A stretch of DNA of 30,112 bases from Patescibacteria group bacterium (GTDB lineage Bacteria > Patescibacteriota > Gracilibacteria > UBA1369 > PNNO01): assembly GCA_042568575.1 (NCBI GenBank), contig JBHPIO010000013.1, positions 1-30,112 on the forward strand, read 5' to 3'. Below the pieces are notes generated by a model. It saw only the letters and a list, made by a program, of their open reading frames with translations. It did no database searches and had not been told where the DNA came from. Of the stretch, positions 2 through 21,622 are shown piece after piece; position 1 is the stretch's first letter, and each line of letters starts with the position of its first letter. The position numbers were made by a program, and so were the translations under genes.

Positions 2-718
2 CTCCCTATATTACACATCGTCGTCGCAGTAACTCTTGTCCTGATCTTAGGCTTTGTTGCTATCTACTCTTTACGAAAGTATAGAGATTTTAAATTGATT
101 GTTAGATATTTTCTGCACGATCTTGGTAATTACATGACTACCCTGACGATCTTTCAGGATTATTTTGAAATGCAAAAAGGAATAGACGATCAAAATCAAT
201 TAAAAGTTTTACAAGATGAAAACAGAGTTTTAATAGATAACATGAGAGACCATCTCTTTGTTTTTAGTGGTTCTTTTCAAAAAGGATTATTAGGGAAGAA
301 GGATGTAGATGAAGTTGATTTTTGTGAGTTGCTTGAGAAGCACAAAGACTCGCTTCTTAGAAAAGGAATGTTGAAAAGAAAATATGCGTGGAAGTTTTCT
401 ATCCCTGAGACTCCAATAATTTTAAAAACTAACATGCACTTACTCAATAGCATGCTTGGAAATCTGTTCTGCAATATTCGCAAATATGCAAAAGAGGGAT
501 CAGAAATAAGCGTAACACTGAAAAATGTTGATGACAGGAAGCATGCAACTTTAGTTATCCAGAACGAAAAGGATTTAGATAGGATCGCTAAAAATAGAAA
601 AGGGCAAGGACTATACTTTATAAAAAAGTTCTCTCCGCAATTACATGCGAAAGTTAATTTGTCAGAGAGCGAGAATCAGTTTAAGACTGAGTGTCACTTT
701 CGAAAGGGAGTGAAATAG
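2..718 (+). CDS. Membrane-anchored histidine kinase-like protein, 5' partial, degenerate HATPase domain
   Basis: Frame is open from the window start (LPILHIVVAVTLVLILGFVAIYSL, a TM helix), so the TTG at 95 is internal. H-box FLHDLGNYMT, N-box GNLFCNIRKYA, G2-like GQGL; no DxGxG G1 box. Stop TAG. Confidence 0.65.
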   Translation, partial: LPILHIVVAVTLVLILGFVAIYSLRKYRDFKLIVRYFLHDLGNYMTTLTIFQDYFEMQKGIDDQNQLKVLQDENRVLIDNMRDHLFVFSGSFQKGLLGKKDVDEVDFCELLEKHKDSLLRKGMLKRKYAWKFSIPETPIILKTNMHLLNSMLGNLFCNIRKYAKEGSEISVTLKNVDDRKHATLVIQNEKDLDRIAKNRKGQGLYFIKKFSPQLHAKVNLSESENQFKTECHFRKGVK

Positions 719-2744
719 AAACTGATGTTGATTCATCTTTTACGCTTTGGATACTTATTCCGCCATGGTGTCTTTCCGCAATAGCTTTTGCTATTGATAA
801 ACCAAGACCCGTTCCACCGGTAGCTTTGGTTCGTGATTTATCTACTCTATAAAAAGTATCAAATACATAAGGTAGATTCTTTTTGTCGATTCCAGGCCCG
901 TCGTCACTGATATTGATTTGTAACTCGTTTCCAGTTGTCTTATATGAGATCTCTACTTTCTTGGTTGCGTAGAAAAATGCATTTTGAAGGACTTCGTGAA
1001 ATAATTTTTCAATCAAAGATGATGCACCTTTAATAATATGATCATTAATCTTGTGCTTAACCTTAATCTTTCTGAATGATTTATTTTTGCTGTATAGTTC
1101 GCCGATAATCCTATCTATAAGATGAGAGAGATTTAATGCTTTAAATGTTAGATTATTCTTATTCTTGCGTAATGAAGATAGCTCTATAAGCGTATTTGTT
1201 GTTTTTGTAACCTTATCGATTTCATCTGCAAGTGATGAAATTTCGTCGACTTTTTGTGGTTCCATCTCCATTTGTAATAGCTCCAGGTTTCCCTTAATGA
1301 CAGTCAAAGGTGTATTGAATTCATGGTAGAGAGATTTAATAAGATCTTCATCTTGGTTTTCTTCAGTATCAACAGTTTGCTTTAATTGTTGATATTTTTT
1401 TGCGTTTGATATTGCAGTAGACGCAATTTGATTCAAAAACTTTTCTACATGCTTTAGGCGTTCTACAGAGATTAAGTGCTTTGTTGCATCTGCTTGTTTA
1501 GTTTTTTTGATTATATAAAGTCCAACTACATCATCATCTTTTTTTAATGGGAGAACGAAAGAGGCATCAAAAGAGTTGAAGCTGTCTTTCAAATCTTCAT
1601 AATTTTGTTGAGATGTATGTCCTTCGCCTTCATGGAGTTCGATTTCTTCAAAGGCAAGGCCGCCGCTATGTGTACTAAAAAATTCCATTAAAGGTTTTTC
1701 ATTTGCAGTTATTTCGCTAGCATTTTGTGGAATAAATAGAGTCGCTTCATTATTTACTGCAAGAGCAGTGCGAACATTTTGATTAAGCAAGTCTGCAATT
1801 TCGTTTAAATTTAAAGTGTTAACAATGCTACTTGTTAAACTACTCAAAACTTCTTTGCACTTCTGCTGACCTGGCAGAAGCTTTGTGTAAAGTTTCTGGA
1901 AGAAATTGAAGATAGTATTGAAATATAAAATTGCAATAATGAAGATTATACTCGAAAGTACTTGGTTACTTAGGTAGAACAGAGGTGAGTCTTGGCGAAC
2001 GAAAACCAGCACAAGTCCTGTCGCCAGTAATGTAATTGTTGAATAAGTGAGAACTTTCTGGAATACGAACTGTAGGTCTAGGAATCTGTAACGAGTGATT
2101 GCATATGTAGTTGAAATGACTAGTGGAATTGTTACTACTGGCGCGATCAAATTAAAATAAAATATGCCAAATGCTGGCAAAACTACGTTTGTAAAAACTC
2201 CAAATCCAATCGTGAAACATATACCTGCTAAAACATATTTAAGTTGTGTTTTTATAATAAGATTCGTAGCTTTGAACATCTTATAAAATAATACGCTTAG
2301 AGCTACGATAGGATAAATTGTAACTAATAAGACATGAAAGAAGTAAAGTGGTCCTAAAGTTGCGTCGATTTGATTGTTTACGCTTACAACATTATAGACA
2401 AATAAATCACTTCTAATAGCTACTAATAAAGTGTATACGATTATGGGTATTGCATATGATAAATGCCACCATTTTAAATTTTTTGAAGGTTTTGGAAATA
2501 GATGCGCAAACAAAGCCAATGAAAACATCAGCATAGGGCCTGCAATGAATGATACTTCTGTCCAAAAAATAGGAGTTGAGACTGAGATCATTATCAGACT
2601 CAAGATCCATGCGTTTAAACTTAAATAAAAGAGGCCAAAAGTAAAACTTTGTATTTTGTTATGACTTTTATTACGTATGAAAAACGATAGTCCTACTAGC
2701 ACATTTATCGCTAAGGTTGCAGATAATATTAAGATTACATTCAT
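681..2744 (-). CDS. Sensor histidine kinase with N-terminal multi-pass (HisKA_7TM-like) receptor, GAF-like region, HisKA and HATPase_c
   Basis: About 9 hydrophobic segments in the first ~280 aa with 7TM-type motifs (FAHLFP, GPLYFF, YAITRYRFLD); H-box HEFNTPL, N-box QNAFFYA, G1 DDGPGI, F VFDTFYR, G2 GGTGLGLSI. Confidence 0.9.
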   Translation of the reverse strand: MNVILILSATLAINVLVGLSFFIRNKSHNKIQSFTFGLFYLSLNAWILSLIMISVSTPIFWTEVSFIAGPMLMFSLALFAHLFPKPSKNLKWWHLSYAIPIIVYTLLVAIRSDLFVYNVVSVNNQIDATLGPLYFFHVLLVTIYPIVALSVLFYKMFKATNLIIKTQLKYVLAGICFTIGFGVFTNVVLPAFGIFYFNLIAPVVTIPLVISTTYAITRYRFLDLQFVFQKVLTYSTITLLATGLVLVFVRQDSPLFYLSNQVLSSIIFIIAILYFNTIFNFFQKLYTKLLPGQQKCKEVLSSLTSSIVNTLNLNEIADLLNQNVRTALAVNNEATLFIPQNASEITANEKPLMEFFSTHSGGLAFEEIELHEGEGHTSQQNYEDLKDSFNSFDASFVLPLKKDDDVVGLYIIKKTKQADATKHLISVERLKHVEKFLNQIASTAISNAKKYQQLKQTVDTEENQDEDLIKSLYHEFNTPLTVIKGNLELLQMEMEPQKVDEISSLADEIDKVTKTTNTLIELSSLRKNKNNLTFKALNLSHLIDRIIGELYSKNKSFRKIKVKHKINDHIIKGASSLIEKLFHEVLQNAFFYATKKVEISYKTTGNELQINISDDGPGIDKKNLPYVFDTFYRVDKSRTKATGGTGLGLSIAKAIAERHHGGISIQSVKDESTSVSISLPFESDTQS

Positions 2745-2778
2745 ACTTTACAAAAGGCCACAATATTTGGATAACTAT

Positions 2779-2787
2779 ATTATAACA
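2779..2787 (-). promoter_or_regulatory. Extended -10 promoter for the 7TM kinase
   Basis: TGtTATAAT on the minus strand, about 34 nt upstream of the ATG at 2744. Confidence 0.5.
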
Positions 2788-2830
2788 ATTATTCCAAAAT
2801 GTTAAATGAAATTTAGAAATTCTTCATATT

Positions 2831-2881
2831 AGAAAATGGCTAAGTCTCACAAATAATAAATAAAAAAAGTGAGACTTAGCC
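2831..2881 (-). terminator. Putative intrinsic terminator of the methyltransferase-acyltransferase operon
   Basis: Perfect 13-bp inverted repeat GGCTAAGTCTCAC (2838-2850) / GTGAGACTTAGCC (2869-2881), 18-nt A/T loop, followed on the minus strand by ATTTTCT; begins about 25 nt after the stop. Confidence 0.55.
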
Positions 2882-2905
2882 GATGCTCTTTCCTGACTTC
2901 AGGAA

Positions 2906-3637
2906 CTAATGAACGGCTTGGAGTTCTGGTACGCTGGCAGGAGTAGGACGAATAGAGGTTTGCGTACTTGGGAAGAAGGGATTGAGGAGCGGATCGCTGG
3001 GCTGGCAGTCTTGCACGGTCAGCTTGCCGATCAGGTCATGTTCGAAGAAGAAACGCCACGCTTGCGTGAGCAGTGACGGTTGCAGAGCGACAATGATCGG
3101 CACGGCCTTATCCCAAAACGTCAGGTTGGGATAGCTTTTCGGCCTGCGAACGATCTGCAGATCGGGACTTGTTACCTGAATCCCCATGGATCTGATCATG
3201 AAGTCGCGCAAACGAGGCTGCTGGTTTGCGATGATCCACTTCTTGCCGAGAGCGGTCGAGAAGATGGCCGTACTAAACATCAGAATCGGGGATACGATGA
3301 GCCCTTGATGACGATATGTATCGAATACGGTCTGTCGGCAGACCTCGAACGTCCTGCCCTTGTCGAGCTTTGGCTCGACTCGTTTCAGGTTGTCCCACCC
3401 GAAGTACTCAGCGGTATCGAGGGGATCGTCGTGCAGAGCGATTGCACCCATCAGGTCGCCTTCGTCGATGTTCTCGAGCACGATGAGATGTTTGGGGTCG
3501 AAAACTTCGAAACGGGTACTGAGTCCGATCTCCTTTCTGTACACATCCGCTACACCTTCGAGTACACGCGGACGTTCCTCCGCACTTGCGAAGCGGAGAC
3601 ACATTTGCGGCAGGTTTACACTTTCAGTCCTTTCCAT
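2906..3637 (-). CDS. GNAT-fold acyltransferase of the N-acyl amino acid synthase (FeeM)/LuxI/thermostable-hemolysin-like group
   Basis: Motif order LRFASAEER..VY..; MGAIAL..DPLDTAEYF; GRTFEVCRQTV..YR (compare EVSRLAV..YR); QPRLRDFM.R.MG (compare PRH..FY...GF). SD TAAGGAG overlaps the upstream stop. Family recognised by eye. Confidence 0.6.
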   Translation of the reverse strand: MERTESVNLPQMCLRFASAEERPRVLEGVADVYRKEIGLSTRFEVFDPKHLIVLENIDEGDLMGAIALHDDPLDTAEYFGWDNLKRVEPKLDKGRTFEVCRQTVFDTYRHQGLIVSPILMFSTAIFSTALGKKWIIANQQPRLRDFMIRSMGIQVTSPDLQIVRRPKSYPNLTFWDKAVPIIVALQPSLLTQAWRFFFEHDLIGKLTVQDCQPSDPLLNPFFPSTQTSIRPTPASVPELQAVH

Positions 3638-3649
3638 CTTTCCCTCTCC

Positions 3650-4483
3650 TTACACGGGTTGAGCCACCATCATGTGGCATTGATTCCCATAGGTGAGCGC
3701 TTCATACGAGATGCTGCACCCAGCTTTTATAAGTGATTCTTTCAGTTGCTGATTAGTCGTGAAGTGATACGTTTTTTCCTCTTGGGCCCTCCGAACGATC
3801 TCTACGTTAATCTCTCCTAGTTTGGATAGAATTTCGGTTACAGGCTGATCTTGGAATCCACGCAGCATTCGCGCATACTCATGTTCGGTAACACTCATTG
3901 CAATTTCCGCAACAGAAGCATTCCCAAACAGTTCTCGAGACAACTGGTTCAACTTTGCAAGATCATTCGTGCGCCATCTTTCAACATCTTTAGGCGATTG
4001 ATCGAGCTGAGCCATCAGGATGAGCCCCATGAATTGTCCAGCGTCTGGATTCACGAGAATCATCTTTCCGTCTTGGTGCAGGTGGCGCTTCAGCATCCTG
4101 ATAGCCGTGTCTGGATCTGGAAGAGCGTACAAGACTTGTGAGCATAGGATGCAATGAAATCGTTCTTCCAAATCCACGTTTTGTGACAGATCCAGTTGCT
4201 CGAAGGAATAATTCGAGCCAATGAGCTTTTCCTGGGCATGTTCCAACATGGCAGTCGAACGATCGAATCCAAATCCTCTTATTGCATTTCCAAAAGTCTG
4301 GTAAAGGGTTAACAGAAAATTTCCAGTTCCACATCCGAAATCTGCGACTCTCATCCCTGGAACGATTTCCGCAGCTTTAAGCATGTCAGCCATCAGCATA
4401 CGGTACGCTTTGAGAACGAGCAGTATGTCGTAGATCCCGGCATAACGGTCCCAGAATGTTCGGTCATTTTTTTCTGAAGTCAA
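3650..4483 (-). CDS. Class I SAM-dependent methyltransferase (small-molecule type) with C-terminal helical insertion
   Basis: FWDRYAGIYD; motif I VADFGCGTG; GFDRSTAMLE; FHCILCSQVLYALPDP; LHQDGKMIL. TTG start with SD AAGGAGGT at 4489-4496. Confidence 0.88.
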   Translation of the reverse strand: MTSEKNDRTFWDRYAGIYDILLVLKAYRMLMADMLKAAEIVPGMRVADFGCGTGNFLLTLYQTFGNAIRGFGFDRSTAMLEHAQEKLIGSNYSFEQLDLSQNVDLEERFHCILCSQVLYALPDPDTAIRMLKRHLHQDGKMILVNPDAGQFMGLILMAQLDQSPKDVERWRTNDLAKLNQLSRELFGNASVAEIAMSVTEHEYARMLRGFQDQPVTEILSKLGEINVEIVRRAQEEKTYHFTTNQQLKESLIKAGCSISYEALTYGNQCHMMVAQPV

Positions 4484-4488
4484 TTGAG

Positions 4489-4569
4489 ACCTCCTTTTTC
4501 AAAGAGCGATCAAACTTGATCGGTTGATTGAAACATTGTTCAAATCAAGAAAGAGCTCTTCAAATAGTA
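4489..4569 (-). promoter_or_regulatory. Structured leader with boxA-like motif abutting the SD
   Basis: Minus strand: -10-like TACTAT (4564-4569), imperfect hairpin 4524-4548, hairpin CGATCAA-GT-TTGATCG (4507-4522), GCTCTTTGAAAA (4496-4507), AAGGAGGT. Confidence 0.45.
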
Positions 4570-4679
4570 CAAAAAATGAGTTATCAAAGTTTCGTACTTT
4601 GTTAATATTTTTATCTGTTAAATTACAAATAAATGTTATGAATTCCTTATATAAAAATTATAGTTTTCTGGATTTTTTG

Positions 4680-4708
4680 TTGACTTCGAAAGTTAAACAT
4701 ATTATGTT
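4680..4708 (+). promoter_or_regulatory. Sigma70-type promoter for the response regulator
   Basis: TTGACT-17 nt-TATGTT. Confidence 0.4.
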
Positions 4709-4736
4709 GATCCTGCAACTCTAGCCACCTATATTT

Positions 4737-5414
4737 ATGAAAATCCTATTTGTTGAAGATGATGTTGTTACCGCTAATTTCTTGATGAGGGGGTTACAAT
4801 ATGAGGGATACACGGTGGAACATGCTTTGGATGGTCGTGAAGGATTAGATCGAATCATACATGGTTCATACGATTGTGTCATCCTGGATTTAATGTTGCC
4901 TCATATGAGTGGGGAAGATGTGTTAAAACAGGTTAGGGCTCAAAAAAAATCAGTCCCTATAATTATTTTGACAGCAATACAGGATGCAGAGACAAAAATT
5001 AAACTTTTAAATGCGGGGGCTGACGACTATTTGTTAAAGCCCTTTTCTTTTGTTGAACTTATTGCGCGAGTCAAGGCAGTAGTTAGAAGGACAAATGGTG
5101 AAAAATCTGATGATGAAATTCTAGAGGTTGATGATTTGAAGATGATACCTCGTTTACATAAAGTTGTGCGTGGTGAAAAAACAATCAAGCTCAGACTTAA
5201 AGAATATGCACTTCTTGAGTACCTTATGCGTCACCCTGAAGAAGTTGTTACGCGAGGCGCGCTTATCGAAAAAGTTTGGGATTATAATGCAAAGATTTTT
5301 TCCAATACGGTTGATTCACATATCTCAATTCTACGTAAAAAAATTAATGATGGGTTCGATAAAAAGTATATCGAGACTATCCACGGAGTAGGATATATTT
5401 TGGATGATCAATAA
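4737..5414 (+). CDS. OmpR/PhoB-family DNA-binding response regulator
   Basis: REC domain VEDD, phosphoacceptor ILDLMLP, LTA, GADDYLLKPF; winged helix EYALLEYLM...NTVDSHISILRKK...IETIHGVGY. Confidence 0.95.
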   Translation: MKILFVEDDVVTANFLMRGLQYEGYTVEHALDGREGLDRIIHGSYDCVILDLMLPHMSGEDVLKQVRAQKKSVPIIILTAIQDAETKIKLLNAGADDYLLKPFSFVELIARVKAVVRRTNGEKSDDEILEVDDLKMIPRLHKVVRGEKTIKLRLKEYALLEYLMRHPEEVVTRGALIEKVWDYNAKIFSNTVDSHISILRKKINDGFDKKYIETIHGVGYILDDQ

Positions 5415-5430
5415 AAATAGTAAAATAATC

Positions 5431-5458
5431 TTGATTACCCAAAAAATTTTGCTATAAT
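5431..5458 (+). promoter_or_regulatory. Sigma70-type promoter with extended -10
   Basis: TTGATT-16 nt-TATAAT with TGc immediately before the -10. Confidence 0.6.
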
Positions 5459-5505
5459 TGGATTCCCGCAAGAAATTGCGATGATACTAATAATACAATC
5501 CACCT

Positions 5506-5946
5506 ATGGCACAAACATTTTTGACTATCCAAGAAGCAGCGGACATTTCAAAAAAATCAATTCAGACTATTCGTCGTGCTGTTAAATCTAAAAAACTTAA
5601 ATCAAGAAAAAAGAAGACGCCACAGGGATACAACTACATGATTGATAAAGATAGTCTCATTTCGACATATGATTTGAAGCATATCTTTGATGAACAAATG
5701 AAAGAAAAGAAAAAGGGTCGCGAGAAGATTTCAAAAACTCCACGAAAGCTTGCGAAACAGTATTTGACTCATGATGATCTTGGTATCTTTAAAGATACTG
5801 TTCAGAATTTGCTTGATCAGCACGAAAAGGATAAAGAGAACTTCTTTAGGCTTGTACAAACATTTCAAGATAAGATGGTAGCTTTGGAAAATCAGGTAAA
5901 ATTGCTTGAAGCTCCAAAAAAGAAATGGTTTCAAATTTGGAAGTAA
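5506..5946 (+). CDS. MerR/excisionase-type HTH protein with coiled coil and C-terminal amphipathic tail (RocS/RacA/pSK1 Par-like architecture)
   Basis: N-terminal LTIQEAADISKKSIQTIRRAVK HTH; heptad-rich C-terminal half; ends KKKWFQIWK. Confidence 0.7.
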   Translation: MAQTFLTIQEAADISKKSIQTIRRAVKSKKLKSRKKKTPQGYNYMIDKDSLISTYDLKHIFDEQMKEKKKGREKISKTPRKLAKQYLTHDDLGIFKDTVQNLLDQHEKDKENFFRLVQTFQDKMVALENQVKLLEAPKKKWFQIWK

Positions 5947-5962
5947 ATCGTCATCTCTTCTC

Positions 5963-6613
5963 ATGAAGAAAAAATTTCGTAAAGAAATCCTGCGTAAACT
6001 GTTTCATTTGTATCAGCTGATTGTAATCGTCGGATACATTGGACTTAGGTATTATCTTTCGGAAAGGATCGCAACTTTTGCATTGGCCATCCTGTTGATG
6101 ATCATATTAGAGTATGAATTTTTGCGTTTAGAATGGAAGGTTAAAATTCCTGATCCTTTTGGGATTATGCGCACACATGAAAAAAAGGCTGCGACGGGGA
6201 CTTTATTCCTAGTTTTGGCAACGATCGTAGTATTTGCAGTTTTTGATTTTAAAATTGCGCTTGTGGCTCTTTTAATTACTGTCTTTGGAGATCTCGTTTC
6301 AGCAATTGTTGGAATTGGGTGGGGGAAAATCAGGATTTATAATGGAAAGAGTTTAGAAGGATTTGGTGCTGGGTTGGTAATGAACTTACTTGTAGCTTCC
6401 ATATTTTTGTGGGAATATCCTTTGCTCGTTTTAGTGATGGCTTTGGTTGCAAGTGTTGTTGAACTATTCACATATAAACTTGATGATAACCTTACAGTCC
6501 CGATTTTTTCAGGATTTGCCGGGCAAATGCTTGCCTACCTTCTGGGGCTTAATCTAGTTCAATTAACCAATCCAATTCAGGATTTAGGGATTTTCTTAAG
6601 CAATGTTTTTTAA
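5963..6613 (+). CDS. Phytol/dolichol/diacylglycerol kinase-like (SEC59/DGK1/VTE5, CTP-dependent) membrane protein
   Basis: EILRKLFHL, R.HEK, FGDLVSAIVG..WGK, GKSLEG, VELF...DDNLTVP motifs and multiple TM helices. Start placed at ATG 5963 to avoid overlapping the upstream gene. Confidence 0.85.
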   Translation: MKKKFRKEILRKLFHLYQLIVIVGYIGLRYYLSERIATFALAILLMIILEYEFLRLEWKVKIPDPFGIMRTHEKKAATGTLFLVLATIVVFAVFDFKIALVALLITVFGDLVSAIVGIGWGKIRIYNGKSLEGFGAGLVMNLLVASIFLWEYPLLVLVMALVASVVELFTYKLDDNLTVPIFSGFAGQMLAYLLGLNLVQLTNPIQDLGIFLSNVF

Positions 6614-6698
6614 AAGTCGACTTGATTTTTACTTGATTCTGTACGAAAAAGTGCTACCTTTTTAGGGCGTAAAATAAGTAGCATTTAACCAGACTGTC

Positions 6699-7946
6699 AT
6701 GTCACTATTTAAAAGCACGCTGAAACAAATCCAAGAAGCAGCCGAAATTATGAAGCTGGATCAGGATATCGTGACTATTTTAAGTCACCCAAAACGCGTA
6801 TTACAGGTAAGTCTTCCTATTCGAATGGATTCCGGGGAAATTAAAGTTTTCCAAGGATTTCGTGTTCAACATAACGATGTAGCAGGACCTTTTAAAGGTG
6901 GTATTCGCTATCATGAACAAGTTGATATGGAAGAAGTTAAGGCTCTAGCAACTTGGATGACTATGAAGTGTTCAGTTGTAGGTATTCCTTTGGGAGGTGG
7001 AAAAGGTGGAATTATTGTTAATCCAAAAACACTTTCAAAACGTGAACTTGAGCAGCTAACAAGGAAATATATTGATCGTGTTCAACTCTTAATTGGGCCG
7101 GATAGAGATGTTCCAGCACCTGATGTTAATACAAACCCTCAAATTATGGCGTGGATGGCGGATGAATATATGAAGCTTGGAAATCTTAATAAAAATGGAG
7201 TTGTAACCGGAAAACCTTTACATGTTGGGGGATCAAAAGGTCGTGACGAAGCAACATCTCGTGGAGGAGCATACGTATTGGCTGAAATAGCAAAAGAGCG
7301 TGGAATTAAACCTGAAGAAACTCGAGTAATAGTTCAGGGATTTGGAAATGCTGGTTCGCATATGGCTCGAATCCTTGCTGAAGAAGGGTACAAGATTGTT
7401 GGAGTTTCAGATTCTAAGGGTGGAGTTTATTGTGAGGACGGTGTAGATGCTCCAGATATGATTCAATGCAAAGTTGATAAAGGAACAGTTACAAAATGCG
7501 AAAGTCTGCCTAGTAGTTGTGAGATGGTAACAAACGAAGAATTAATTGAAAAAGATTGTGACATCCTTGTGCTAGCGGCTTTAGAGAATCAGGTTACAGA
7601 AGAAAATGCAGATCGCATTAAAGGTAAAATTATTATTGAACTTGCTAATGGACCAGTCACTCCAGAAGCAGACAAAATTCTTGAAAAGAATGGCGTTGCT
7701 GTAGTGCCAGACATCCTTGCTAATGCAGGAGGTGTAACAGTAAGTTATTTCGAATTAGTTCAAAATATGAATAACTACTACTGGACCGCCGAGAAGGTTC
7801 AAAGACGATTGAAGCCAATTATGGTGAGTGCTTGGGCACGAGTTTCGGGGGTACAGAAAAAGTATGACTGTAGTTTGCGGCAAGCAGCATTTATATCAGC
7901 AATGGTACGATTAGAAGAGATGCTCAAATCTAGAGGATTCGAGTAG
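6699..7946 (+). CDS. gdhA: Glu/Leu/Phe/Val dehydrogenase, most likely glutamate dehydrogenase
   Basis: GPFKGGIRY, MTMKC, GGGKGG, DVPAPD, VTGKP, QGFGNAG, ELANGP, PDILANAGGVTVSYFE. Confidence 0.93.
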   Translation: MSLFKSTLKQIQEAAEIMKLDQDIVTILSHPKRVLQVSLPIRMDSGEIKVFQGFRVQHNDVAGPFKGGIRYHEQVDMEEVKALATWMTMKCSVVGIPLGGGKGGIIVNPKTLSKRELEQLTRKYIDRVQLLIGPDRDVPAPDVNTNPQIMAWMADEYMKLGNLNKNGVVTGKPLHVGGSKGRDEATSRGGAYVLAEIAKERGIKPEETRVIVQGFGNAGSHMARILAEEGYKIVGVSDSKGGVYCEDGVDAPDMIQCKVDKGTVTKCESLPSSCEMVTNEELIEKDCDILVLAALENQVTEENADRIKGKIIIELANGPVTPEADKILEKNGVAVVPDILANAGGVTVSYFELVQNMNNYYWTAEKVQRRLKPIMVSAWARVSGVQKKYDCSLRQAAFISAMVRLEEMLKSRGFE

Positions 7947-7963
7947 TCATTAATACAAACATT

Positions 7964-7996
7964 AAAAAAGGCCTGCTATATATTAGCGGGCCTTTT
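7964..7996. terminator. Bidirectional intrinsic terminator between convergent gdhA and aspC
   Basis: AAAAAAGGCCTGCTA-tatat-TAGCGGGCCTTTT: GC stem with A- and T-tracts on either side. Confidence 0.85.
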
Positions 7997-8012
7997 GTTT
8001 ATTCTAATTTAT

Positions 8013-9176
8013 TTATCCAAACAATTTCTCTAATCTATTCAAACATTCCTGAATTCGTTCTTCGGATGTAGCGAATGAAAATCTAACATGTTCGTCTGTT
8101 CCAAATGCGGCACCTGGGACAGCAGCAATGTGAGCTTCTTCTAATAATTTAGCTGCCATTTTAGTTGAATCTGAAATTTCATCATTATAGTTTCCAGATA
8201 GATTAGGATATAAATAGAAAGCTCCACCCGGTTTTACACATTTGATTCCATTGATCTTATTAAGCCCATCTACGAACATATCTCGTCTTTTGTGGTATAT
8301 CTCCCTCATCTTCCCAACTTCGTCCTGTGGGCCGTTTAACGCCTCAATACTTGCCACTTGAGCAATTGCATTCGGGTTCCCTGTTATGTGCGATAAAGCC
8401 CCACCAATTTTCTTTGCTACTTCCGGCGGCATACCCGCATATCCAATTCTCCATCCGGGCATTGCATATGTTTTTGATAATCCATTTACTGTGATCGTCT
8501 TATTCCAAACATCTTTATCGATACTTGCAATACTAAAATATTCTCCATCAAACACAAGACGTTCGTACATTTCGTCTGCCATAATCCAGATGTCATGTTT
8601 CAAACAAAGCTCTGCGATCTTTCGTTTTTCTTCCTCAGAAATAATTCCTCCTGTCGGATTTGATGGATCATTTAGAATTAGAATTTTTGTTCTATCGGTA
8701 ATTTTTTCTGCGATCTTTTCTGCTTTAATTTCAAAACCATCCTCTTCTTTTGCTTCTACAATAACTGGCTTTAATCCAGCTAATTTAATGTCGTCTGGGT
8801 AAGTTACCCAATAAGGTGAAGGTACTAAAACTTCATCTCCTGGATCACATAGGGCAAGCATAGCAGCATACAGGATTGGCTTAGCCCCCGATGCAACAAC
8901 TATATCCGCGACCTCATATTGTAGATTGTTTTCACGAGCAAACTTATCAACGATTGCTTGTTTAAGTTCAGGTGTTCCAGAAGCGGGGGTATATTTAGAG
9001 TTCCCTTCTTCGACTGCCTTAATTGCTGCCTGTTTAATATTTTCAGGAATTGGGAAATCAGGCTGACCAACAGCCATGTTTACAACATCAACTCCCTGCT
9101 TTTTAAGCTCTTGCGCTTTGGCATTAAGGGCAAGTGTTGCAGAAGGAGCCATTTGAAGGATTCTTTCAGAAAACAT
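8013..9176 (-). CDS. aspC: PLP-dependent class I/II aminotransferase (aspartate aminotransferase type)
   Basis: GQPDF, PSPYWVTY, PSNPTG, DEMYE, GLSKTYAMPGWRIGY (PLP lysine), PGGAFY, VPGAAFG, RFSFA. Confidence 0.9.
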   Translation of the reverse strand: MFSERILQMAPSATLALNAKAQELKKQGVDVVNMAVGQPDFPIPENIKQAAIKAVEEGNSKYTPASGTPELKQAIVDKFARENNLQYEVADIVVASGAKPILYAAMLALCDPGDEVLVPSPYWVTYPDDIKLAGLKPVIVEAKEEDGFEIKAEKIAEKITDRTKILILNDPSNPTGGIISEEEKRKIAELCLKHDIWIMADEMYERLVFDGEYFSIASIDKDVWNKTITVNGLSKTYAMPGWRIGYAGMPPEVAKKIGGALSHITGNPNAIAQVASIEALNGPQDEVGKMREIYHKRRDMFVDGLNKINGIKCVKPGGAFYLYPNLSGNYNDEISDSTKMAAKLLEEAHIAAVPGAAFGTDEHVRFSFATSEERIQECLNRLEKLFG

Positions 9177-9182
9177 ATTTAA

Positions 9183-10730
9183 TTAGTTAAATACAGATGT
9201 GATTTTTGAATCTAATTTAGGATACTTTTTAAAGTATTCAAGTCGCTCCGCTTTTAGCTTTTCAACCATTGAATTGTATTCATCAATTCGACCTGTTCGT
9301 TCGTAAAGTTTCTTAGGCTGAATGATTTCTTCATCTTCGATTCCAGGCACTTTGGTTGCAACCATGTATCCAAAATCTGGATCTTCTTCCCACTCAATTG
9401 TATTTTCCGCAATACCTTTTACACATGCAGAAGAGTGAGGAATTTTAACTTTTTTAGATTCTTCAATTGATTCTTGTCCACCAACTCTTCCTGTGTTCAT
9501 TAGGTAAACTTCCATATCAACTTTGCCAAGTAATTCTTCAACTCTGTTGCCTTGTTGGTCGTCTAGTAACGGGAAAAATGGGTTTGTTCCAGGGATTCTA
9601 AGTGCCTTCCCTGCTTCTGCTGCACCACCAGCAGAAGTACCAGTAGTTTCACCAAGCATAAAGTATGCAGCTGCTTGTTCAGCATTTAGTTTTGCAACAG
9701 ATGGGATGATATTTTCATTTCTATTTAAGATAATCAATGCAGAAGCTTTTTCAATTTCACTAGCTTTACCAGCATTTGGAATAGCATTTAAACTAAACAC
9801 CGCACGTCCGTTTTTTGTGTAAGACGTATCGAAAAAATCGAGTTCACCTTCTTCGTTCATAGAAACATTTTCAAGATAAGCCTTGTTGTCGATAGTTGCG
9901 TTAAAAATTGCTTCTTCAGTCTCAGGATTTAATCCGAAAGTCTTTGCAAAACATCCAGCTTCAGTAGCAAATACTTTCCCGTCAGCCATTAGTGCTAAAA
10001 AGTCATCTTGAACTGGCCGTGAATTATTTTGACTGGTAAAAGTTGTTGTAGTTTTACCGGTTCCGCTCAATCCAATAATAAGCAGTGTTTTTTCGCCATC
10101 ATCAGTTGGAACGATTTTTGCTCCAGCGTGTAAAGGAATTCCACCTCTGTCATAAACCATTTTATTCCACATCCTAAGCCCACTCTTTTTGCTCTCTCCA
10201 AAGTAATCAGAATTAAAAATTCGAGTCACATTACAATCAACACAAGATGCAATTAAACGATCATTTGCGTATCCTTTCGCTTCTAAATTTGGAGTATAAA
10301 TTATAGTTACTTCTGGCTCATAATTCTCGTTCTCATAGTTTTCTAAAGGGTAGTACATAGTCTTTTGCATCGCCGCAATATTCGCACTGCTAGGCTCAAC
10401 AATTAGTCTTGCTTTCACTCTAAACTCGGGATCGTTTCCAATATATCCATCAATCACAATCATCTCTTTATCGTTCATATATTCATTTTGAAGCTGAGCC
10501 ATTTTATCTCCTTCTTCTTTTGAAATAGTTTGGATTGTGTGAGCTTCCGGGGTGTCAGAAACCATATATGTAGATGGACCTGATCTAGAAACAACCTTCG
10601 TTGAAACATTCCAATTGCCATATTTTGTTTTCTTAGCGTTTGGCATTCGCGAAATCATTTCATCGAGTTCTTCGAAAGAAGGATTGTAGATAAAGGTGCA
10701 ATCCTGTGGGAGTTTTGCGAAAGTAGACAT
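9183..10730 (-). CDS. pckA: Phosphoenolpyruvate carboxykinase (ATP), divergent form
   Basis: SDYFGESKK, PLHAGA, kinase-1a GLSGTGKTT, QDD, EAGCFAKT, LENV, TKNGR, YLMNTG. Confidence 0.88.
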   Translation of the reverse strand: MSTFAKLPQDCTFIYNPSFEELDEMISRMPNAKKTKYGNWNVSTKVVSRSGPSTYMVSDTPEAHTIQTISKEEGDKMAQLQNEYMNDKEMIVIDGYIGNDPEFRVKARLIVEPSSANIAAMQKTMYYPLENYENENYEPEVTIIYTPNLEAKGYANDRLIASCVDCNVTRIFNSDYFGESKKSGLRMWNKMVYDRGGIPLHAGAKIVPTDDGEKTLLIIGLSGTGKTTTTFTSQNNSRPVQDDFLALMADGKVFATEAGCFAKTFGLNPETEEAIFNATIDNKAYLENVSMNEEGELDFFDTSYTKNGRAVFSLNAIPNAGKASEIEKASALIILNRNENIIPSVAKLNAEQAAAYFMLGETTGTSAGGAAEAGKALRIPGTNPFFPLLDDQQGNRVEELLGKVDMEVYLMNTGRVGGQESIEESKKVKIPHSSACVKGIAENTIEWEEDPDFGYMVATKVPGIEDEEIIQPKKLYERTGRIDEYNSMVEKLKAERLEYFKKYPKLDSKITSVFN

Positions 10731-10956: not shown

Positions 10957-13563
10957 ATGCAGTACATATACGCATTCAAAGAAGGAGACCGCTCGATGAA
11001 GGACACGCTAGGCGGAAAAGGAGCAAATTTAGCTGAGATGACCAAGTTAGGTATTCCAGTTCCACAAGGGTTTACGATCACAACAGATGTTTGTGATTTA
11101 TATTTTAAAGAAGATGGTTATCCGGGAGGATATAACGATTCACTTGAAAAATATGTAGGAGGACTTGAAGAAGAAACAGGAAAACAATTTGGTGATAAAG
11201 AAAATCCGCTGCTTGTTTCAGTGCGATCAGGAGCTGCAATCTCGATGCCAGGAATGATGGATACAGTTTTGAATCTTGGAATAAATGATGACACAATCAA
11301 GGGATTAATCGAAAAAACTGGAAATAAAAGATTCTGCTATGACGCGTATCGCAGATTTATTCAGATGTTTGGAAATGTAGTTTTAGATATCGATCACGAT
11401 CTTTTTGAACATAAACTTGAGGGCCTCAAGAAGGAAAAGAACACAGCCAACGATGTTGATTTAACAGAAGAAGACCTTGAAAGATTGGTTAATGAATTTA
11501 AGGAAATTGTTAAAGAGCAAACTGGAGAATCATTTCCGGAAGACCCAAAAAAGCAGCTTAATATGTCGATAGAAGCAGTATTTAAGTCTTGGCACAATCA
11601 ACGTGCTGTTACTTATAGAAAGCTAAATAATATTACTGGTCTTCGTGGAACTGCTGTAAATGTTCAAACAATGGTGTTTGGAAATATGGGAGAAAATTCG
11701 GGAACAGGTGTGGCTTTCACGCGTGATCCGTCTACCGGAATAAATGAGTTCTATGGAGAGTATTTGATGAACGCACAGGGTGAAGATGTAGTGGCGGGAA
11801 TCAGGACTCCAAATGAAATCAAAATGTTACAAGATCAAATGCCGGTAATTTATGATGAACTTCTTAACATTAGGAAAAACTTAGAAGATCATTATAAAGA
11901 AATGCAGGATGTAGAATTTACGATTGAAGAGGGGAAGCTTTATATGCTTCAAACAAGAAACGGAAAACGTACAGCTGCTGCGGCTTTAAAGATTGCAGTA
12001 GATATGTTTAACGAAGGTCTAATAACAAAAGATGAAGCGTTAATGAGGATCGATCCTGATCAATTGAATCATCTTCTTCATCCAATGCTTGATCCTGATG
12101 CAGAAAAAAATGTTATTGCAAAAGGTCTGCCAGCTTCGCCAGGAGCTGCAGTTGGAAAAGTTGTTTTCACAGCTGATGAAGCATATGAGTGGGCAAACGA
12201 AAAAGATGAGAAAGTAATTCTTGTTAGAAAAGAAACTTCGCCGGAAGATATTCACGGGATGCATGCGGCTCAGGGAATTTTAACTTCAACAGGAGGTATG
12301 ACTTCCCACGCAGCTGTTGTAGCTCGTGGAATGGGAACCTCATGTGTTGCAGGTTGTGGAGAAGTTATAGTAGATGCACAAGCTAAGAAATTTACAGTAG
12401 GAGATGTTACAGTGAATGAAAGTGAATTTATAACTTTGGATGGATCAACTGGAGAAGTTATTTTAGGACAAGTTCCAACAATCAAACCTGAGTTAACTAG
12501 AGATTTCCAGGAGATTCTAAATTGGGCAAAGGATGTTAAGACACTTGGAGTGAGAACAAATGCGGACACTCCTCACGATTCAAAAGTTGCCAGAGAATTT
12601 GGTGCGGAAGGTATCGGATTATGTAGAACTGAACACATGTTCTTTGATGAAGCGAGAATTAAGAGTGTGCGTGAAATGATTCTTTCAAAAGACGAAGCAG
12701 GACGAAGAACTGCTCTTGCAAAGCTTAAACCTCATCAAAAAGAAGACTTTGCTGGAATTTATAGAGCTATGGACGGACTTCCAGTAACAATAAGATTACT
12801 TGACCCGCCACTTCATGAATTCCTTCCTCAAAAGGAAGAACATATAGAAGAACTTGCTAATGAAATGGGAGTTCCTGCAGAAGAACTTAAAGCAAAAGTT
12901 GCTTCTCTTCACGAAATGAATCCAATGCTTGGGCACAGAGGATGTCGTCTTGGATTAACATATCCAGAAATTTACGAAATGCAGGTACAGGCGATTATCG
13001 AAGCAGGTATTGAAGTTAGCAAAGATGGAATTGTGCCAATTCCGGAAATTGAAATTCCACTTGTTTCAACAATAAAAGAATTTGAAAGATTAAGAGTTAG
13101 GTTAGAAAAGGTGATTGATGAATACAGAGGTCAAATAAAGTTTGAATATAAAATTGGAACAATGATTGAAACTCCTCGTGCTGCCTTAATTGCAGATCAA
13201 ATTGCGGAAACTGCTGACTTTATGTCATTCGGAACAAACGATCTTACACAGATGACATATGGGTTCTCTCGTGACGATATTGGAAAGTTCCTTCCAGTTT
13301 ATCTAGATACATGCATTCTGGAAGCTGATCCATTTGAAACAATAGATCAAGAAGGTGTAGGGCAATTAATGAAAATGACAGTTGAGAAAGGAAAAGAAGT
13401 AAATCCTCATATTGATGTTGCGATTTGCGGAGAGCAAGGTGGAGAGCCAAAATCAGTTGAGTTCTGCCACAATATCGGACTCGATTATGTAAGTTGCTCG
13501 CCATTTAGAGTTCCTATTGCAGTTTTGTCTGCTGCGCAAGCAAAGATAAAAGCTGAGCTCTAG
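10957..13563 (+). CDS. ppdK: Pyruvate, phosphate dikinase
   Basis: LGGKGANLAEM, SVRSGA..SMPGMMDT, NAQGEDVVAG, phospho-His GGMTSHAAVVARG, GIGLCRTEHMF, SFGTNDL, CGEQGG; 868 aa. Confidence 0.97.
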   Translation: MQYIYAFKEGDRSMKDTLGGKGANLAEMTKLGIPVPQGFTITTDVCDLYFKEDGYPGGYNDSLEKYVGGLEEETGKQFGDKENPLLVSVRSGAAISMPGMMDTVLNLGINDDTIKGLIEKTGNKRFCYDAYRRFIQMFGNVVLDIDHDLFEHKLEGLKKEKNTANDVDLTEEDLERLVNEFKEIVKEQTGESFPEDPKKQLNMSIEAVFKSWHNQRAVTYRKLNNITGLRGTAVNVQTMVFGNMGENSGTGVAFTRDPSTGINEFYGEYLMNAQGEDVVAGIRTPNEIKMLQDQMPVIYDELLNIRKNLEDHYKEMQDVEFTIEEGKLYMLQTRNGKRTAAAALKIAVDMFNEGLITKDEALMRIDPDQLNHLLHPMLDPDAEKNVIAKGLPASPGAAVGKVVFTADEAYEWANEKDEKVILVRKETSPEDIHGMHAAQGILTSTGGMTSHAAVVARGMGTSCVAGCGEVIVDAQAKKFTVGDVTVNESEFITLDGSTGEVILGQVPTIKPELTRDFQEILNWAKDVKTLGVRTNADTPHDSKVAREFGAEGIGLCRTEHMFFDEARIKSVREMILSKDEAGRRTALAKLKPHQKEDFAGIYRAMDGLPVTIRLLDPPLHEFLPQKEEHIEELANEMGVPAEELKAKVASLHEMNPMLGHRGCRLGLTYPEIYEMQVQAIIEAGIEVSKDGIVPIPEIEIPLVSTIKEFERLRVRLEKVIDEYRGQIKFEYKIGTMIETPRAALIADQIAETADFMSFGTNDLTQMTYGFSRDDIGKFLPVYLDTCILEADPFETIDQEGVGQLMKMTVEKGKEVNPHIDVAICGEQGGEPKSVEFCHNIGLDYVSCSPFRVPIAVLSAAQAKIKAEL

Positions 13564-14875
13564 TAGCTCGAAGTTTTGCCGGATATTCTTGTTCCAAAAC
13601 AGAGATAGCTTCCTTAAGTGAAGGTCTTTCTTCTCTGTAGTAACTAAGCATGCGGGTAATCAAATCTAAGACGTTTTCTGGAATCACTGTTGATGGAGAA
13701 ATCTTTTCAATAATACCTAATATAAGTTCTCTGATATCAAAGTCGAGCCTGCGAGAAGGATCACTTGGGTTTTGCATTTTTAATAATCTTATTTCATGGA
13801 TTGCATCTTCAATACTTTCGGCAACCATGTCATGAGCTTGATCAAAAATTTCCATAAGTTCTGACTCTTCGTATTTATTCTGCACATCATTAAAAGCAAT
13901 ACTAAATCTTATGGAAAAATCAGTATGAAATTCTTCAACAAAATCTTCCCTGTCATCAAAATCAACGTATGAAAATAAAAGCGTCATTCCAAAGGCAAAG
14001 ATGTCCATTTCTTTAGATGCCCTTCCGAGAGTATGCATTGCATATGGATACCATGCGATATCTATATATTCCTGGGTCGATATTGTTCTTTCACATTTCC
14101 CTCCTTCTTTTACGACAAATTCATGGTCGCATAATTTTCCTCGTTCTACACCATCTTCATCTTCAACAATCATGATGTTTTGAAGCTTAATATCCCTATG
14201 AACCAATCCAAGATTATGTAAGTGTTCACAACCTCTCATTGCATCTATAAGAAAACCCATGGCTTCTTCTTCAGATGTATTTATAGTCGAGTCTAAGTCG
14301 GCATAGCCTGATAAATTTTTTGCGTATACTAAAGTTCCTCTAGTTTTATCTGCCTTAACAAGCGGAACGAATCTTTCCGTAACTAAATACTCATGCGTAG
14401 GACTTGTTTGTTCTTCTTCTAATCCGGATCGATCTTTCGGAACATTCTTTATTGCACGATCTGGATTGCAGTGCATTTCATCCCACATAAATGGAAGAGT
14501 TCCTTTATCGAAAGGAACTTCGTATGTTGGAGACACAGAGTGCACAATATTTCCTTTTTCTTTATAAATATCTGCAACTGTAGCCTGAATTTTTTTCAAA
14601 AAATGAATTAATAGAGAATATATTTCTTTTAGTTCTTCGTTTAAGAGCACATCAAATTCATCAAGATCTTCAAAATCCTCATTGGAACATTGTTTTCGAA
14701 TGTACTTCTCAATTTCGCTTATATCAAGTGGAAGATAGACAAGGCCATCTTCAATATCAGTATGCGCAATTTTCTGAGCGATTCGCCTTATATCGCTTAT
14801 GTCAAACGTATCTGCCTTATGTGATAACAGCAGCTTTGCAGCCTTCTTTGATATATCGAGTTCGTGTGCTTCCAT
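13514..14875 (-). CDS. Divergent Hanks-type Ser/Thr protein kinase domain protein
   Basis: Catalytic loop HLHNLGLVHRDIKLQNIM, YAK (VAIK equivalent), KLCDHE for DFG, ST.EY, DIFAFG, C-terminal RML....ERPS..EA; 50-bp convergent overlap with ppdK. Confidence 0.8.
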   Translation of the reverse strand: MEAHELDISKKAAKLLLSHKADTFDISDIRRIAQKIAHTDIEDGLVYLPLDISEIEKYIRKQCSNEDFEDLDEFDVLLNEELKEIYSLLIHFLKKIQATVADIYKEKGNIVHSVSPTYEVPFDKGTLPFMWDEMHCNPDRAIKNVPKDRSGLEEEQTSPTHEYLVTERFVPLVKADKTRGTLVYAKNLSGYADLDSTINTSEEEAMGFLIDAMRGCEHLHNLGLVHRDIKLQNIMIVEDEDGVERGKLCDHEFVVKEGGKCERTISTQEYIDIAWYPYAMHTLGRASKEMDIFAFGMTLLFSYVDFDDREDFVEEFHTDFSIRFSIAFNDVQNKYEESELMEIFDQAHDMVAESIEDAIHEIRLLKMQNPSDPSRRLDFDIRELILGIIEKISPSTVIPENVLDLITRMLSYYREERPSLKEAISVLEQEYPAKLRATRAQLLSLLAQQTKLQ

Positions 14876-21111: not shown

Positions 21112-21128
21112 ATAAGTCCCCAGAGGGC

Positions 21129-21610: not shown

Positions 21611-21622
21611 ATATATGAAGGA

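Follow-up and report, generated by a model that had tools for sequence, protein, structure and literature searches.

Bernard et al. (2020, mSystems, PMC7567580) detected 36 LuxI homologues in the candidate phyla radiation (CPR) with a hidden Markov model (HMM), 18 of which adjoin a sensory kinase and were termed candidates for complete quorum-sensing systems. In the main text of that paper, the CPR LuxI homologues are treated as acyl-homoserine lactone (AHL) synthases in which Trp-35 may be Phe or Tyr, and the word 'methyltransferase' does not appear (0 occurrences). Here we describe a four-gene locus at the beginning of contig JBHPIO010000013.1 (assembly GCA_042568575.1), from a Patescibacteria group bacterium of the Gracilibacteria, in which the gene of a seven-transmembrane (7TM) sensor histidine kinase is preceded by those of a class I S-adenosylmethionine (SAM)-dependent methyltransferase and a predicted LuxI/FeeM-fold acyltransferase, and an OmpR-type response regulator is encoded divergently. 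The whole stretch of DNA analysed, 30,112 nucleotides long, is called the window. Judged by the main text of Bernard et al. (PMC7567580), the locus is like their pairs in having a LuxI-like gene 161 nt upstream of a same-strand kinase gene in a reduced genome, and unlike them in that the acyltransferase is missed by the LuxI HMM, belongs to an orphan family, has a methyltransferase partner, and lies in an island of foreign guanine-plus-cytosine content (GC). Because the acyltransferase is invisible to the LuxI HMM, a census based on HMM or BLAST searches would miss it. A preliminary description of the window had not recognised the combination as a described system; this has to be corrected in so far as the pairing of a LuxI homologue with a sensory kinase in CPR was published on computational grounds in 2020 (PMC7567580), the methyltransferase being absent from the main text there. 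What the locus appears to add to the known pairing is an orphan synthase family, swapped in by transfer.

On balance, we lean towards reading the locus as a make-and-sense module for a methylated acyl-amide, the synthase half of which was acquired by horizontal transfer beside the only HisKA_7TM kinase of the genome. The reading builds on how the genes are arranged, on the folds and domain make-up of their products, on the foreign base composition of the two enzyme genes, and on comparable gene sets that recur in two phyla. Four intact open reading frames (ORFs) stand in the arrangement given in the preliminary description, with the 7TM kinase, the 243-aa acyltransferase, and the methyltransferase on the minus strand and the regulator divergent on the plus strand; both the ORF coordinates and the Pfam assignments agree with the layout proposed there (kinase, two enzymes with a 12-nt gap, divergent regulator, 253-nt region), and the reduced-genome host that it supposed fits the assembly of 1.20 Mb (31 contigs, 82% complete). 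The features are as follows.

681-2744, minus strand: sensor histidine kinase (687 aa; GC ~0.30-0.37, host-like)
2745-2905, minus strand: spacer between the acyltransferase and kinase genes (161 nt; stem-loop and promoter-like site)
2906-3637, minus strand: predicted LuxI/FeeM-fold GCN5-related N-acetyltransferase (GNAT)-type acyltransferase, orphan sequence family (243 aa; GC 0.52-0.56)
3638-3649, minus strand: gap between the methyltransferase and acyltransferase genes (12 nt, with a Shine-Dalgarno-like GGAG)
3650-4483, minus strand: class I SAM-dependent methyltransferase (277 aa; GC 0.44-0.50)
4484-4736, no strand: divergent intergenic region separating the enzyme operon from the regulator gene (253 nt, AT-rich, GC 0.26-0.27)
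4737-5414, plus strand: OmpR/PhoB-family response regulator (225 aa; GC 0.36-0.39, host-like)
2-718, plus strand: second histidine-kinase-like gene, truncated at the contig start so that only its 3' part is present (degenerate HATPase_c, E 0.018)

The 243-aa protein escapes sequence-based family searches. No Pfam or NCBIfam family scored above its cut-off, the best being Acetyltransf_17 (E 0.028, below cut-off), and no NCBIfam acyltransferase family matched at E ≤ 0.1; NCBIfam presumably includes model TIGR03694 for PEP-CTERM/exosortase-linked N-acyl amino acid synthases. Autoind_synth (PF00765) did not match the window protein at E ≤ 0.1, nor five homologues at E ≤ 1 (P0002, P0003, and P0010-P0013 less the window copy; P0014 was left out of the Pfam scan), nor anything in the whole host genome at E ≤ 0.001, the last being a weak test, since 0/14 control genomes matched either. 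The FeeM model (PF21926) had no match to the window protein and none in the host genome at E ≤ 1, the homologue P0013 reaching E 0.052 (13.8 bits, below the cut-off of 27), and Acetyltransf_5 (PF13444) had no match to the window protein, the homologue P0012 reaching E 0.012, likewise below cut-off. Sequence searches of the Protein Data Bank (PDB) gave a best E of 0.058, to an unrelated RNase P/MRP subunit, for the single protein and nothing meaningful (best E 0.065) for the family profile, and tblastn of the acyltransferase against plasmids and phages gave no match. An exhaustive search of 1.84 billion cluster representatives returned four family clusters at E ≤ 0.001, and word-indexed searches added two further sequences at 79% identity and one more distant, bringing the family to eight known sequences, the window copy included. 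Two of the homologues lie on contigs of 2,957 bp (P0002) and 54 kb (P0013). Loci of the four closest family members were found in neither genome nor metagenome contigs, and a locus search with P0013 alone found none in metagenome contigs.

The fold is recognisable in the predicted structure. An AlphaFold2 model built on the seven-sequence family alignment had a mean predicted local distance difference test score (pLDDT) of 85.8 and a predicted template-modelling score of 0.83, with pLDDT below 50 only at residues 1-5 and 226-243. The top Foldseek matches of this model were the coenzyme A (CoA)-dependent AHL synthases MesI and BjaI (E 4e-7 to 7e-7). A VIA search of 48,161 chains, independent of Foldseek, placed RpaI (Z 16.0), LasI (14.6), TofI (14.5), and MesI (14.5) at the top, with FeeM (12.8) and generic GNATs (11-13) ranking lower. 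When the Foldseek top 1,000 were rescored, the first nine rows were all AHL synthases (RpaI, Z 16.2 with 184 residues aligned and a root-mean-square deviation (rmsd) of 3.0; BjaI, 15.6-15.8; LasI, 14.6; TofI, 14.5 and 14.0; MesI, 14.5), EsaI also came ahead of FeeM, and FeeM reached 13.5 and generic GNATs at most 13.4, so that the margin of the AHL synthases over generic GNATs is a modest ~1-3 Z units. The alignments with AHL synthases extend to residues 210-223 of the model, whereas those with most generic GNATs end near 185. FeeM (2g0b) aligned over 166-170 residues (Z 12.8-13.5, rmsd 3.3-3.6), as is expected of a FeeM-like fold, and the model has the GNAT-derived alpha/beta fold with C-terminal extension of LuxI-type proteins. 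The window protein is thus, according to its predicted structure, a LuxI/FeeM-fold acyltransferase of an orphan family outside both Pfam families. The preliminary description had anticipated a FeeM/LuxI (GNAT) fold, and the model agrees, with AHL synthases first and FeeM after them, though Pfam and NCBIfam do not see it; the relatives it expected were also recovered, the ESM Atlas neighbours of the protein bearing FeeM, T_hemolysin, Acetyltransf_5, and Autoind_synth domains (FeeM in 12-62% of members).

Compared with the AHL synthases RpaI, BjaI, and MesI (PDB 6wn0, 5w8a, and 6wns), LasI, TofI, and EsaI, the window protein shares the fold including the C-terminal elements (Z 14.5-16.2, 165-184 residues aligned, rmsd 2.9-3.7 Å) and the conserved Glu and Arg on strand beta-4, but it has only 12-16% identity to them, no Pfam match, and no demonstrable N-terminal SAM-binding signature. 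E98 and R101 on beta-4 (TFEVCRQ) are invariant in 7/7 aligned family members and fall on E101 and R104 of TraI (VESSRF), the Glu and Arg expected in LuxI-type proteins, in an alignment that is itself weak (E 0.074, residues 39-154 only). This profile-profile comparison, of the family with TraI and the GNAT domain of the fused proteins described below, is not significant and was used only to place these two residues. In the N-terminal part, no Arg, Phe, or Trp before residue 64 is invariant in the seven-sequence alignment, and the TraI alignment starts at 39; the four closest family members share R15, R22, Y33, F43, and F46. We take the N-terminal SAM-binding residues of TraI to be Arg, Phe, and Trp near positions 25, 29, and 35. 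The locus also differs from LuxI/LuxR systems in that the presumed receptor encoded beside it is a 7TM histidine kinase in place of a cytoplasmic LuxR-type protein, and in that a methyltransferase is co-transcribed. With FeeM, the protein shares the fold and, as predicted from it, the formation of an N-acyl amide of an amino acid or amine; unlike FeeM, it has no model match above cut-off and a host in which no acyl carrier protein (ACP) was found. FeeM reportedly uses acyl-ACP.

The second enzyme, of 277 aa, matches Pfam Methyltransf_31 (E 3.6e-18), _23, _25, _12, and _11, all five above cut-off, and carries the SAM-binding motif DFGCGTGNF and a C-terminal extension of ~130 aa. With its Rossmann-type domain and glycine-rich motif, it is a class I SAM-dependent methyltransferase; no NCBIfam equivalog scored at its cut-off. 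Its gene starts with TTG, with AAGGAGG just before, and the 12-nt gap that separates it from the acyltransferase gene, GGAGAGGGAAAG, resembles a Shine-Dalgarno site; the two genes form a tight operon. The closest relative is P0005, at 57% identity, and the remainder are at most 43% identical. The protein belongs to the same clade as the methyltransferase half of fused methyltransferase-LuxI/FeeM proteins (BLASTP E 6e-21; P0009), and genes of this clade also adjoin a GH3 gene and a 7TM sensor gene (tblastn E 5.8e-13; full-length alignment).

The kinase has HisKA_7TM at residues 9-224 (35.9 bits, cut-off 28.6), HisKA at 467-526 (38.5, cut-off 26.9), and HATPase_c at 576-682 (81.6, cut-off 26.4) and is a member of the HisKA_7TM kinase class as defined by Pfam PF16927, PF00512, and PF02518. 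Its middle region of ~170 aa has no Pfam match and is GAF-like by alignment. It is the sole HisKA_7TM match in the host genome. The kinase aligns end to end with a 7TM-GAF kinase linked to methyltransferase and GH3 genes in the Dehalococcoidia genome G453 (22% identity, E 4e-27), and its 7TM part matches sensors encoded beside fused methyltransferase-GNAT genes (BLASTP E 2e-11 and 9e-8). In the portions of the literature retrieved, HisKA_7TM is named only as a sensor domain, without a ligand. The regulator has Response_reg (E 9.7e-28, 97.0 bits) and Trans_reg_C (E 1.4e-26, 92.8 bits) and is of the OmpR/PhoB family; since no NCBIfam equivalog scored at its cut-off, no specific regulon can be assigned to it.

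In the spacer ahead of the kinase gene, a stem-loop at 2838-2881 has a 13-bp stem without mismatches and an 18-nt loop of A/U, and a 96-nt stretch folds at -33.8 kcal/mol (z -7.2; 0/200 shuffles were equally stable). A promoter-like TTAACA-17-TAATAT lies 3' of the stem-loop at 2805-2777, a consensus match only, as the scan count did not exceed that in shuffled sequence. The stem-loop is a possible terminator or attenuator, with the kinase's own promoter possibly adjacent, so the kinase gene may form a separate transcription unit. The 253-nt divergent region, presumed to hold both promoters, has promoter-like plus-strand sites at 4680-4708 and 4707-4735, again consensus matches only.

The enzyme pair is compositionally foreign beside kinase and regulator genes of host GC. 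GC is 0.44-0.56 over 2900-4500, which comprises the two enzyme genes, against 0.27-0.39 on both flanks, and it dips to 0.26-0.28 at both boundaries of the island, falling from 0.55 to 0.27 within 2745-2905 at one of them; the other lies in 4484-4736. The acyltransferase family was not found in 40/40 relatives, nor in 400/400 evenly drawn genomes of the phylum. To the right of the locus, the genes of a helix-turn-helix (HTH) protein, a membrane protein, glutamate dehydrogenase, and an aminotransferase are syntenic in the same genus and family at 70-92% identity. This synteny stops at about 5506, and relatives bear unrelated genes to the left of that point. Furthermore, the best match of the regulator in a same-genus genome is 50% identical and in a different context, and no counterpart of the kinase was found there at E ≤ 1e-20. 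The lost synteny and the lack of close orthologues of the flanking genes mark the entire left part of the window as variable; within this region, the higher-GC enzyme genes were acquired more recently than those of the kinase and the regulator. A 22-nt inverted repeat (18/22 complementary) occurs at both ends of the island, at 2894-2915 and 4461-4482. A reading of it as a transposon-like terminal repeat was dropped, since the arm at 4461-4482 covers the first codons of the methyltransferase gene, that at 2894-2915 covers the acyltransferase stop codon and a small palindrome immediately after it, and there is neither a transposase nor a target duplication.

Analogous gene sets recur in the phylum of the window. 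Autoind_synth matched at E ≤ 0.001 in 6/400 other genomes, in three of them above cut-off. Five of the six genes are directly upstream of a same-strand histidine kinase gene, and three of those five kinases resemble the window 7TM domain (tblastn E 1e-11 to 2e-14). One of the five loci has the order of the window, namely methyltransferase, GNAT, and a 747-aa kinase, and its methyltransferase is 39% identical to a Dehalococcoidia one (E 2e-50). A ThiF-family enzyme is encoded beside the GNAT in 3/5 loci; the sixth and weakest match (E 3.6e-4) has neither kinase, methyltransferase, nor ThiF adjoining. In two genomes of the window's own taxonomic order (G006 and G025), the gene of a conserved ~635-aa protein without known family directly precedes that of a 706-aa 7TM kinase. 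In G006, a gene for a pyridoxal phosphate (PLP)-dependent decarboxylase comes before it. Further upstream, a second kinase and an OmpR-type regulator are encoded. Together with the phylum loci, these two genomes suggest that the slot upstream of 7TM kinases is repeatedly occupied by genes of small-molecule enzymes.

The clusters in the relatives (G006:C1:958000-970000, 779-8136; G025:C18:3000-15000, 3384-10546; G002:C64, 2887-7593) contain genes for an OmpR-type regulator, a small kinase, a PLP-dependent decarboxylase of the ornithine/diaminopimelate/arginine type, and a 610-640-aa protein without Pfam family. The C-terminal part of this protein comes after a SET domain in G002, and a 332-aa ORF without Pfam family takes the position of the decarboxylase in G025. 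In the ESM Atlas, the 610-640-aa protein gave weak GNAT-like leads only (score 0.90-0.91, ~126-129 shared features).

Related arrangements occur in Dehalococcoidia. The methyltransferase search returned a 456-aa protein (P0009) that combines in one chain a same-clade methyltransferase and a FeeM/Acetyltransf_5/Autoind_synth domain; a 60%-identical relative is encoded in the Dehalococcoidia genome G435 and another relative in G720. In both genomes, one small ORF downstream of the fusion, an 842-aa 7TM-GAF-GGDEF-HD-GYP protein is encoded, the first 300 residues of which resemble the 7TM part of the window kinase (BLASTP E 2e-11 and 9e-8); it aligns with the HisKA_7TM model over the full model length (E 4e-6) and scores above cut-off in the genome search. 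G720 encodes four HisKA_7TM proteins, three of them with synthase-type neighbours: the fused methyltransferase-LuxI/FeeM gene at the first; a stand-alone Autoind_synth GNAT, a ThiF-family enzyme, and a LuxR-type regulator at the second; and a methyltransferase of the window clade (tblastn E 5.8e-13) with a GH3-family ligase at the third. In G453, a tight operon encodes a methyltransferase, a GH3 protein, and then a 7TM-GAF-HisKA-HATPase-REC kinase. The Dehalococcoidia GH3/HisKA_7TM pairs, as in G453, share with the window the sensor domain, the gene order, and the methyltransferase clade; they differ in that an ATP-dependent GH3 ligase stands in for the GNAT as the amide-forming enzyme, and in that the output is mostly GGDEF and HD-GYP, not a kinase.

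The GH3 association extends beyond these loci. Among 18 further HisKA_7TM loci, picked from 94 rows by frame size alone (820-883 aa), GH3 is near in 11, and two of the seven without it end upstream at a contig edge. By coordinates in 201 Dehalococcoidia genomes, 33/57 GH3 rows are within 1 kb of a HisKA_7TM row and 42/57 within 6 kb, and 43/94 HisKA_7TM rows have GH3 within 6 kb, where chance adjacency in genomes of 1-6 Mb would be ~1% on a rough estimate. The GH3 proteins are just 33-57% identical to the query, which suggests that the pairing of GH3 with 7TM sensors is old. In several loci, the methyltransferase slot is taken by a membrane methyltransferase resembling PEMT, whose match stays just short of the cut-off (E 5.3e-5, 24 bits; cut-off 25), and in one, a ketoacyl synthase and a B12-radical SAM enzyme are encoded between GH3 and the sensor. 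The linkage of such enzyme sets to 7TM receptors elsewhere, on which the preliminary description made its reading depend, is thus supported, homologous or analogous sets adjoining HisKA_7TM-type sensors in two phyla. In plants, GH3 is reported to conjugate small acids to amino acids (PMC11253546). Literature searches found, among the matches listed, no publication on bacterial GH3 genes paired with sensors, and none that joins LuxI, a methyltransferase fusion, and N-acyl amino acids.

Some details of the Dehalococcoidia loci may be added. The GH3 gene is typically directly upstream of that of a 7TM-GAF-GGDEF-HD-GYP sensor or hybrid kinase. A ThiF/E1-like enzyme is encoded beside a LuxI/FeeM-type GNAT and a sensor kinase at one locus (G720:C2:688000-702000, 8005-10467), and the recurrence of ThiF may point to activation of a carboxylate, or to cyclisation, in some variants of the pathway. 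At G704:C51, 7072-9419, an alanine racemase gene is followed after ~520 bp, on the same strand, by the gene of a stand-alone FeeM-family GNAT of 214 aa; the surrounding 15 kb revealed no 7TM sensor.

Considering these results, we propose the following scenario, in which we infer the chemistry, the ligand-receptor relation, the kinase-regulator pairing, and the feedback. The acyltransferase would join an acyl thioester to an amine or amino-acid acceptor via an amide bond, and the co-transcribed methyltransferase would methylate this product, giving a neutral, lipophilic methylated acyl-amide. This compound may partition into the membrane and be read there by the 7TM domain of the kinase, which would phosphorylate the divergently encoded OmpR-type regulator. 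The regulator would then act on the shared 253-nt region, through which autoregulation may be inferred, and on other targets. The Phc system of Ralstonia (PhcB/PhcS/PhcR), in which a methyl-ester signal made by a methyltransferase is sensed by a membrane histidine kinase, offers a conceptual likeness only; it presumably has no LuxI/FeeM-type acyltransferase. N-acyl alanine methyl esters (NAMEs), products of Roseovarius tolerans, are structural analogues of AHLs for which no candidate synthase genes are known and which are stated to take no part in AHL signalling (PMC11580390). Their resemblance to the proposed methylated acyl-amide is by analogy.

Several observations weigh against this scenario, among them the supply of substrates. 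In the 82%-complete host genome, no PP-binding/ACP match was found (11/14 control genomes matched), nor a ketoacyl synthase, an AMP-binding ligase, or a PlsC-type acyltransferase, nor a SAM synthetase (C-terminal domain); the searches for substrate genes matched in 10-14 of the 14 controls. The supply of acyl donor and SAM is thus unexplained. The acyl-ACP donor of a FeeM-type enzyme was not found in the host genome, which has no ACP match, and the Acetyltransf_5 match and OlsA/PlsC partner of an OlsB-type enzyme are likewise missing, with no PlsC-family match in the genome. Dephospho-CoA kinase (CoaE) is present, which together with the failure to find ACP favours a CoA thioester as donor; a CoA thioester or a scavenged compound is more likely than an acyl-ACP of the host's own. 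CoA-dependent AHL synthases top the structural list of the model and tie with ACP-dependent ones, so the predicted fold does not choose between donors. The SAM synthetase may lie in the unassembled 18% of the genome, or SAM may be imported.

In addition, the strong hairpin between the acyltransferase and kinase genes leaves their co-transcription a presumption, and the enzymes (GC 0.44-0.56) differ in history from the kinase and the regulator (0.30-0.39), their distinct GC implying that the adjacency in this genome is recent. Only its fold relates the acyltransferase to the LuxI/FeeM domains encoded at the comparison loci (profile-profile E 0.074, not significant). Within the 201 Dehalococcoidia genomes, 51/94 7TM rows have no GH3 within 6 kb, and just one of seven FeeM-model matches adjoins a 7TM sensor. 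Other HisKA_7TM kinases, at G001:C123, G435:C14, and G720:C2:98656, lack such enzyme neighbours. Moreover, related genomes do not count as independent cases, and since the comparison loci came from pursuing leads, the enrichment is partly post hoc. The link between enzymes and sensors is specific to sub-clades, HisKA_7TM kinases of other architectures having unrelated neighbours.

An unlikely alternative is envelope remodelling, in which the two enzymes would produce a methylated N-acyl amino lipid that is retained in the membrane of the producing cell, the kinase and regulator controlling or sensing the state of the lipid, with no diffusible signal. Lyso-ornithine-lipid, made by OlsB and then N-methylated, would be the analogue. 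The neighbours of the acyltransferase include the lipid-forming branch of the clan (Acetyltransf_5, FeeM, and T_hemolysin), and the homologue P0012 has its sub-threshold Acetyltransf_5 match (E 0.012). The methyltransferase weakly matches phospholipid N-methyltransferases (NF045882, E 5.4e-5; PDB 8ys9, E 0.0012), but these lipid-methyltransferase matches are far under the curated cut-offs. The PEMT-like membrane methyltransferase of several Dehalococcoidia loci (E 5.3e-5, just under cut-off) points the same way, as does the general nature of the sensory genes, 7TM sensors being membrane-embedded and OmpR-family systems often controlling the envelope. However, no second acyltransferase of PlsC/OlsA type, ACP, or fatty-acid synthase was found in the host genome, and every other structure ranks below the AHL synthases, whose signals are soluble. 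Furthermore, GH3 replaces the amide-forming enzyme elsewhere and a ThiF-type enzyme is present at 3/5 LuxI-like loci of the phylum; to our knowledge, neither is an enzyme of bulk lipid synthesis.

Less probable still is a coincidental adjacency, by which a foreign two-gene island of unrelated function, for example the detoxification or modification of a metabolite or antibiotic, happens to sit with the kinase and the regulator in a variable region. The GC of the enzyme genes, 10-25 points above the flanks, the absence of the acyltransferase family from 40/40 relatives and 400/400 sampled genomes of the phylum, and the end at 5506 of the conserved synteny (HTH protein, membrane protein, and glutamate dehydrogenase), to the left of which the region is variable, are all consistent with such an origin, as are the hairpin and possible separate promoter ahead of the kinase gene and the lack of close same-genus orthologues of the flanking genes (regulator, 50%; kinase, none at E ≤ 1e-20). 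Yet the island is directly upstream of the sole HisKA_7TM gene among ~1,200 genes, for which the chance is ~0.2% on a rough estimate, and the order of methyltransferase, amide-forming enzyme, and 7TM sensor is also found in unrelated genomes. The slot upstream of the 7TM kinase in G006 and G025 likewise holds a small-molecule enzyme or genes of no known family, and this recurring occupancy is more in keeping with an exchange of genes in a functional slot than with insertion at random.

That the protein is a true LuxI-type AHL synthase, converting SAM and acyl-CoA to an acyl-homoserine lactone with the methyltransferase accessory or unrelated, is very improbable: although the top structural matches are CoA-dependent AHL synthases (RpaI, Z 16.2; BjaI, 15.8), the beta-4 E-x-x-R signature is conserved, and the CPR LuxI homologues are treated as such in the main text of PMC7567580 with Trp-35 replaceable by Phe or Tyr, Autoind_synth matches neither the window protein (E ≤ 0.1), the five homologues (E ≤ 1), nor the genome (E ≤ 0.001), the family alignment has no invariant Trp, Arg, or Phe among the N-terminal 60 residues, the TraI profile alignment is limited to residues 39-154 and not significant, the search of the 82%-complete genome gave no SAM synthetase, and the recurrent methyltransferase, GH3, or ThiF partner points to non-lactone products.

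Returning to the make-and-sense module, we raise tentatively, as an idea on which we remain doubtful, a wider generalisation. HisKA_7TM domains might be widespread intramembrane receptors for self-made methylated acyl-amides across CPR and Chloroflexota, served by a swappable synthase (a LuxI/FeeM GNAT, GH3, or a ThiF-assisted version, with or without a class I or PEMT-like methyltransferase), and in the present host, apparently unable to make fatty acids, a foreign pair from an unrecognised LuxI-fold family might have replaced the synthase. If this is true, a resident kinase was given a new 'dialect', and a signal synthase was replaced by horizontal transfer. The order kept across phyla with non-homologous middle enzymes suggests that chemical signalling of this type forms a general class, apart from the LuxI/LuxR scheme. 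To this the locus adds a LuxI-fold family missed by HMM censuses, a methyltransferase partner common to the fused and GH3-linked versions, and evidence that a synthase module can be exchanged by gene transfer. The four genes frame two questions, namely what the enzymes produce and whether the neighbouring kinase reads that product.

Other features of the window concern its context. The truncated kinase-like gene at 2-718 on the plus strand is convergent with the 7TM kinase gene and overlaps its 3' end by 38 nt; we regard it as context and do not claim it for the circuit. An 857-aa ORF without Pfam family at E ≤ 1e-5 lies downstream of nusA at 21675-24248 on the plus strand, a position usually occupied by infB, and GC is slightly raised around it (0.43 at 21001-22000). 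At 13514-14875 on the minus strand, a protein with a eukaryote-type Ser/Thr kinase domain (Pkinase, E 1.7e-14) is encoded, surrounded by housekeeping genes for PEPCK, PPDK, NAD kinase, RecA, NusA, and a type IV pilus ATPase.

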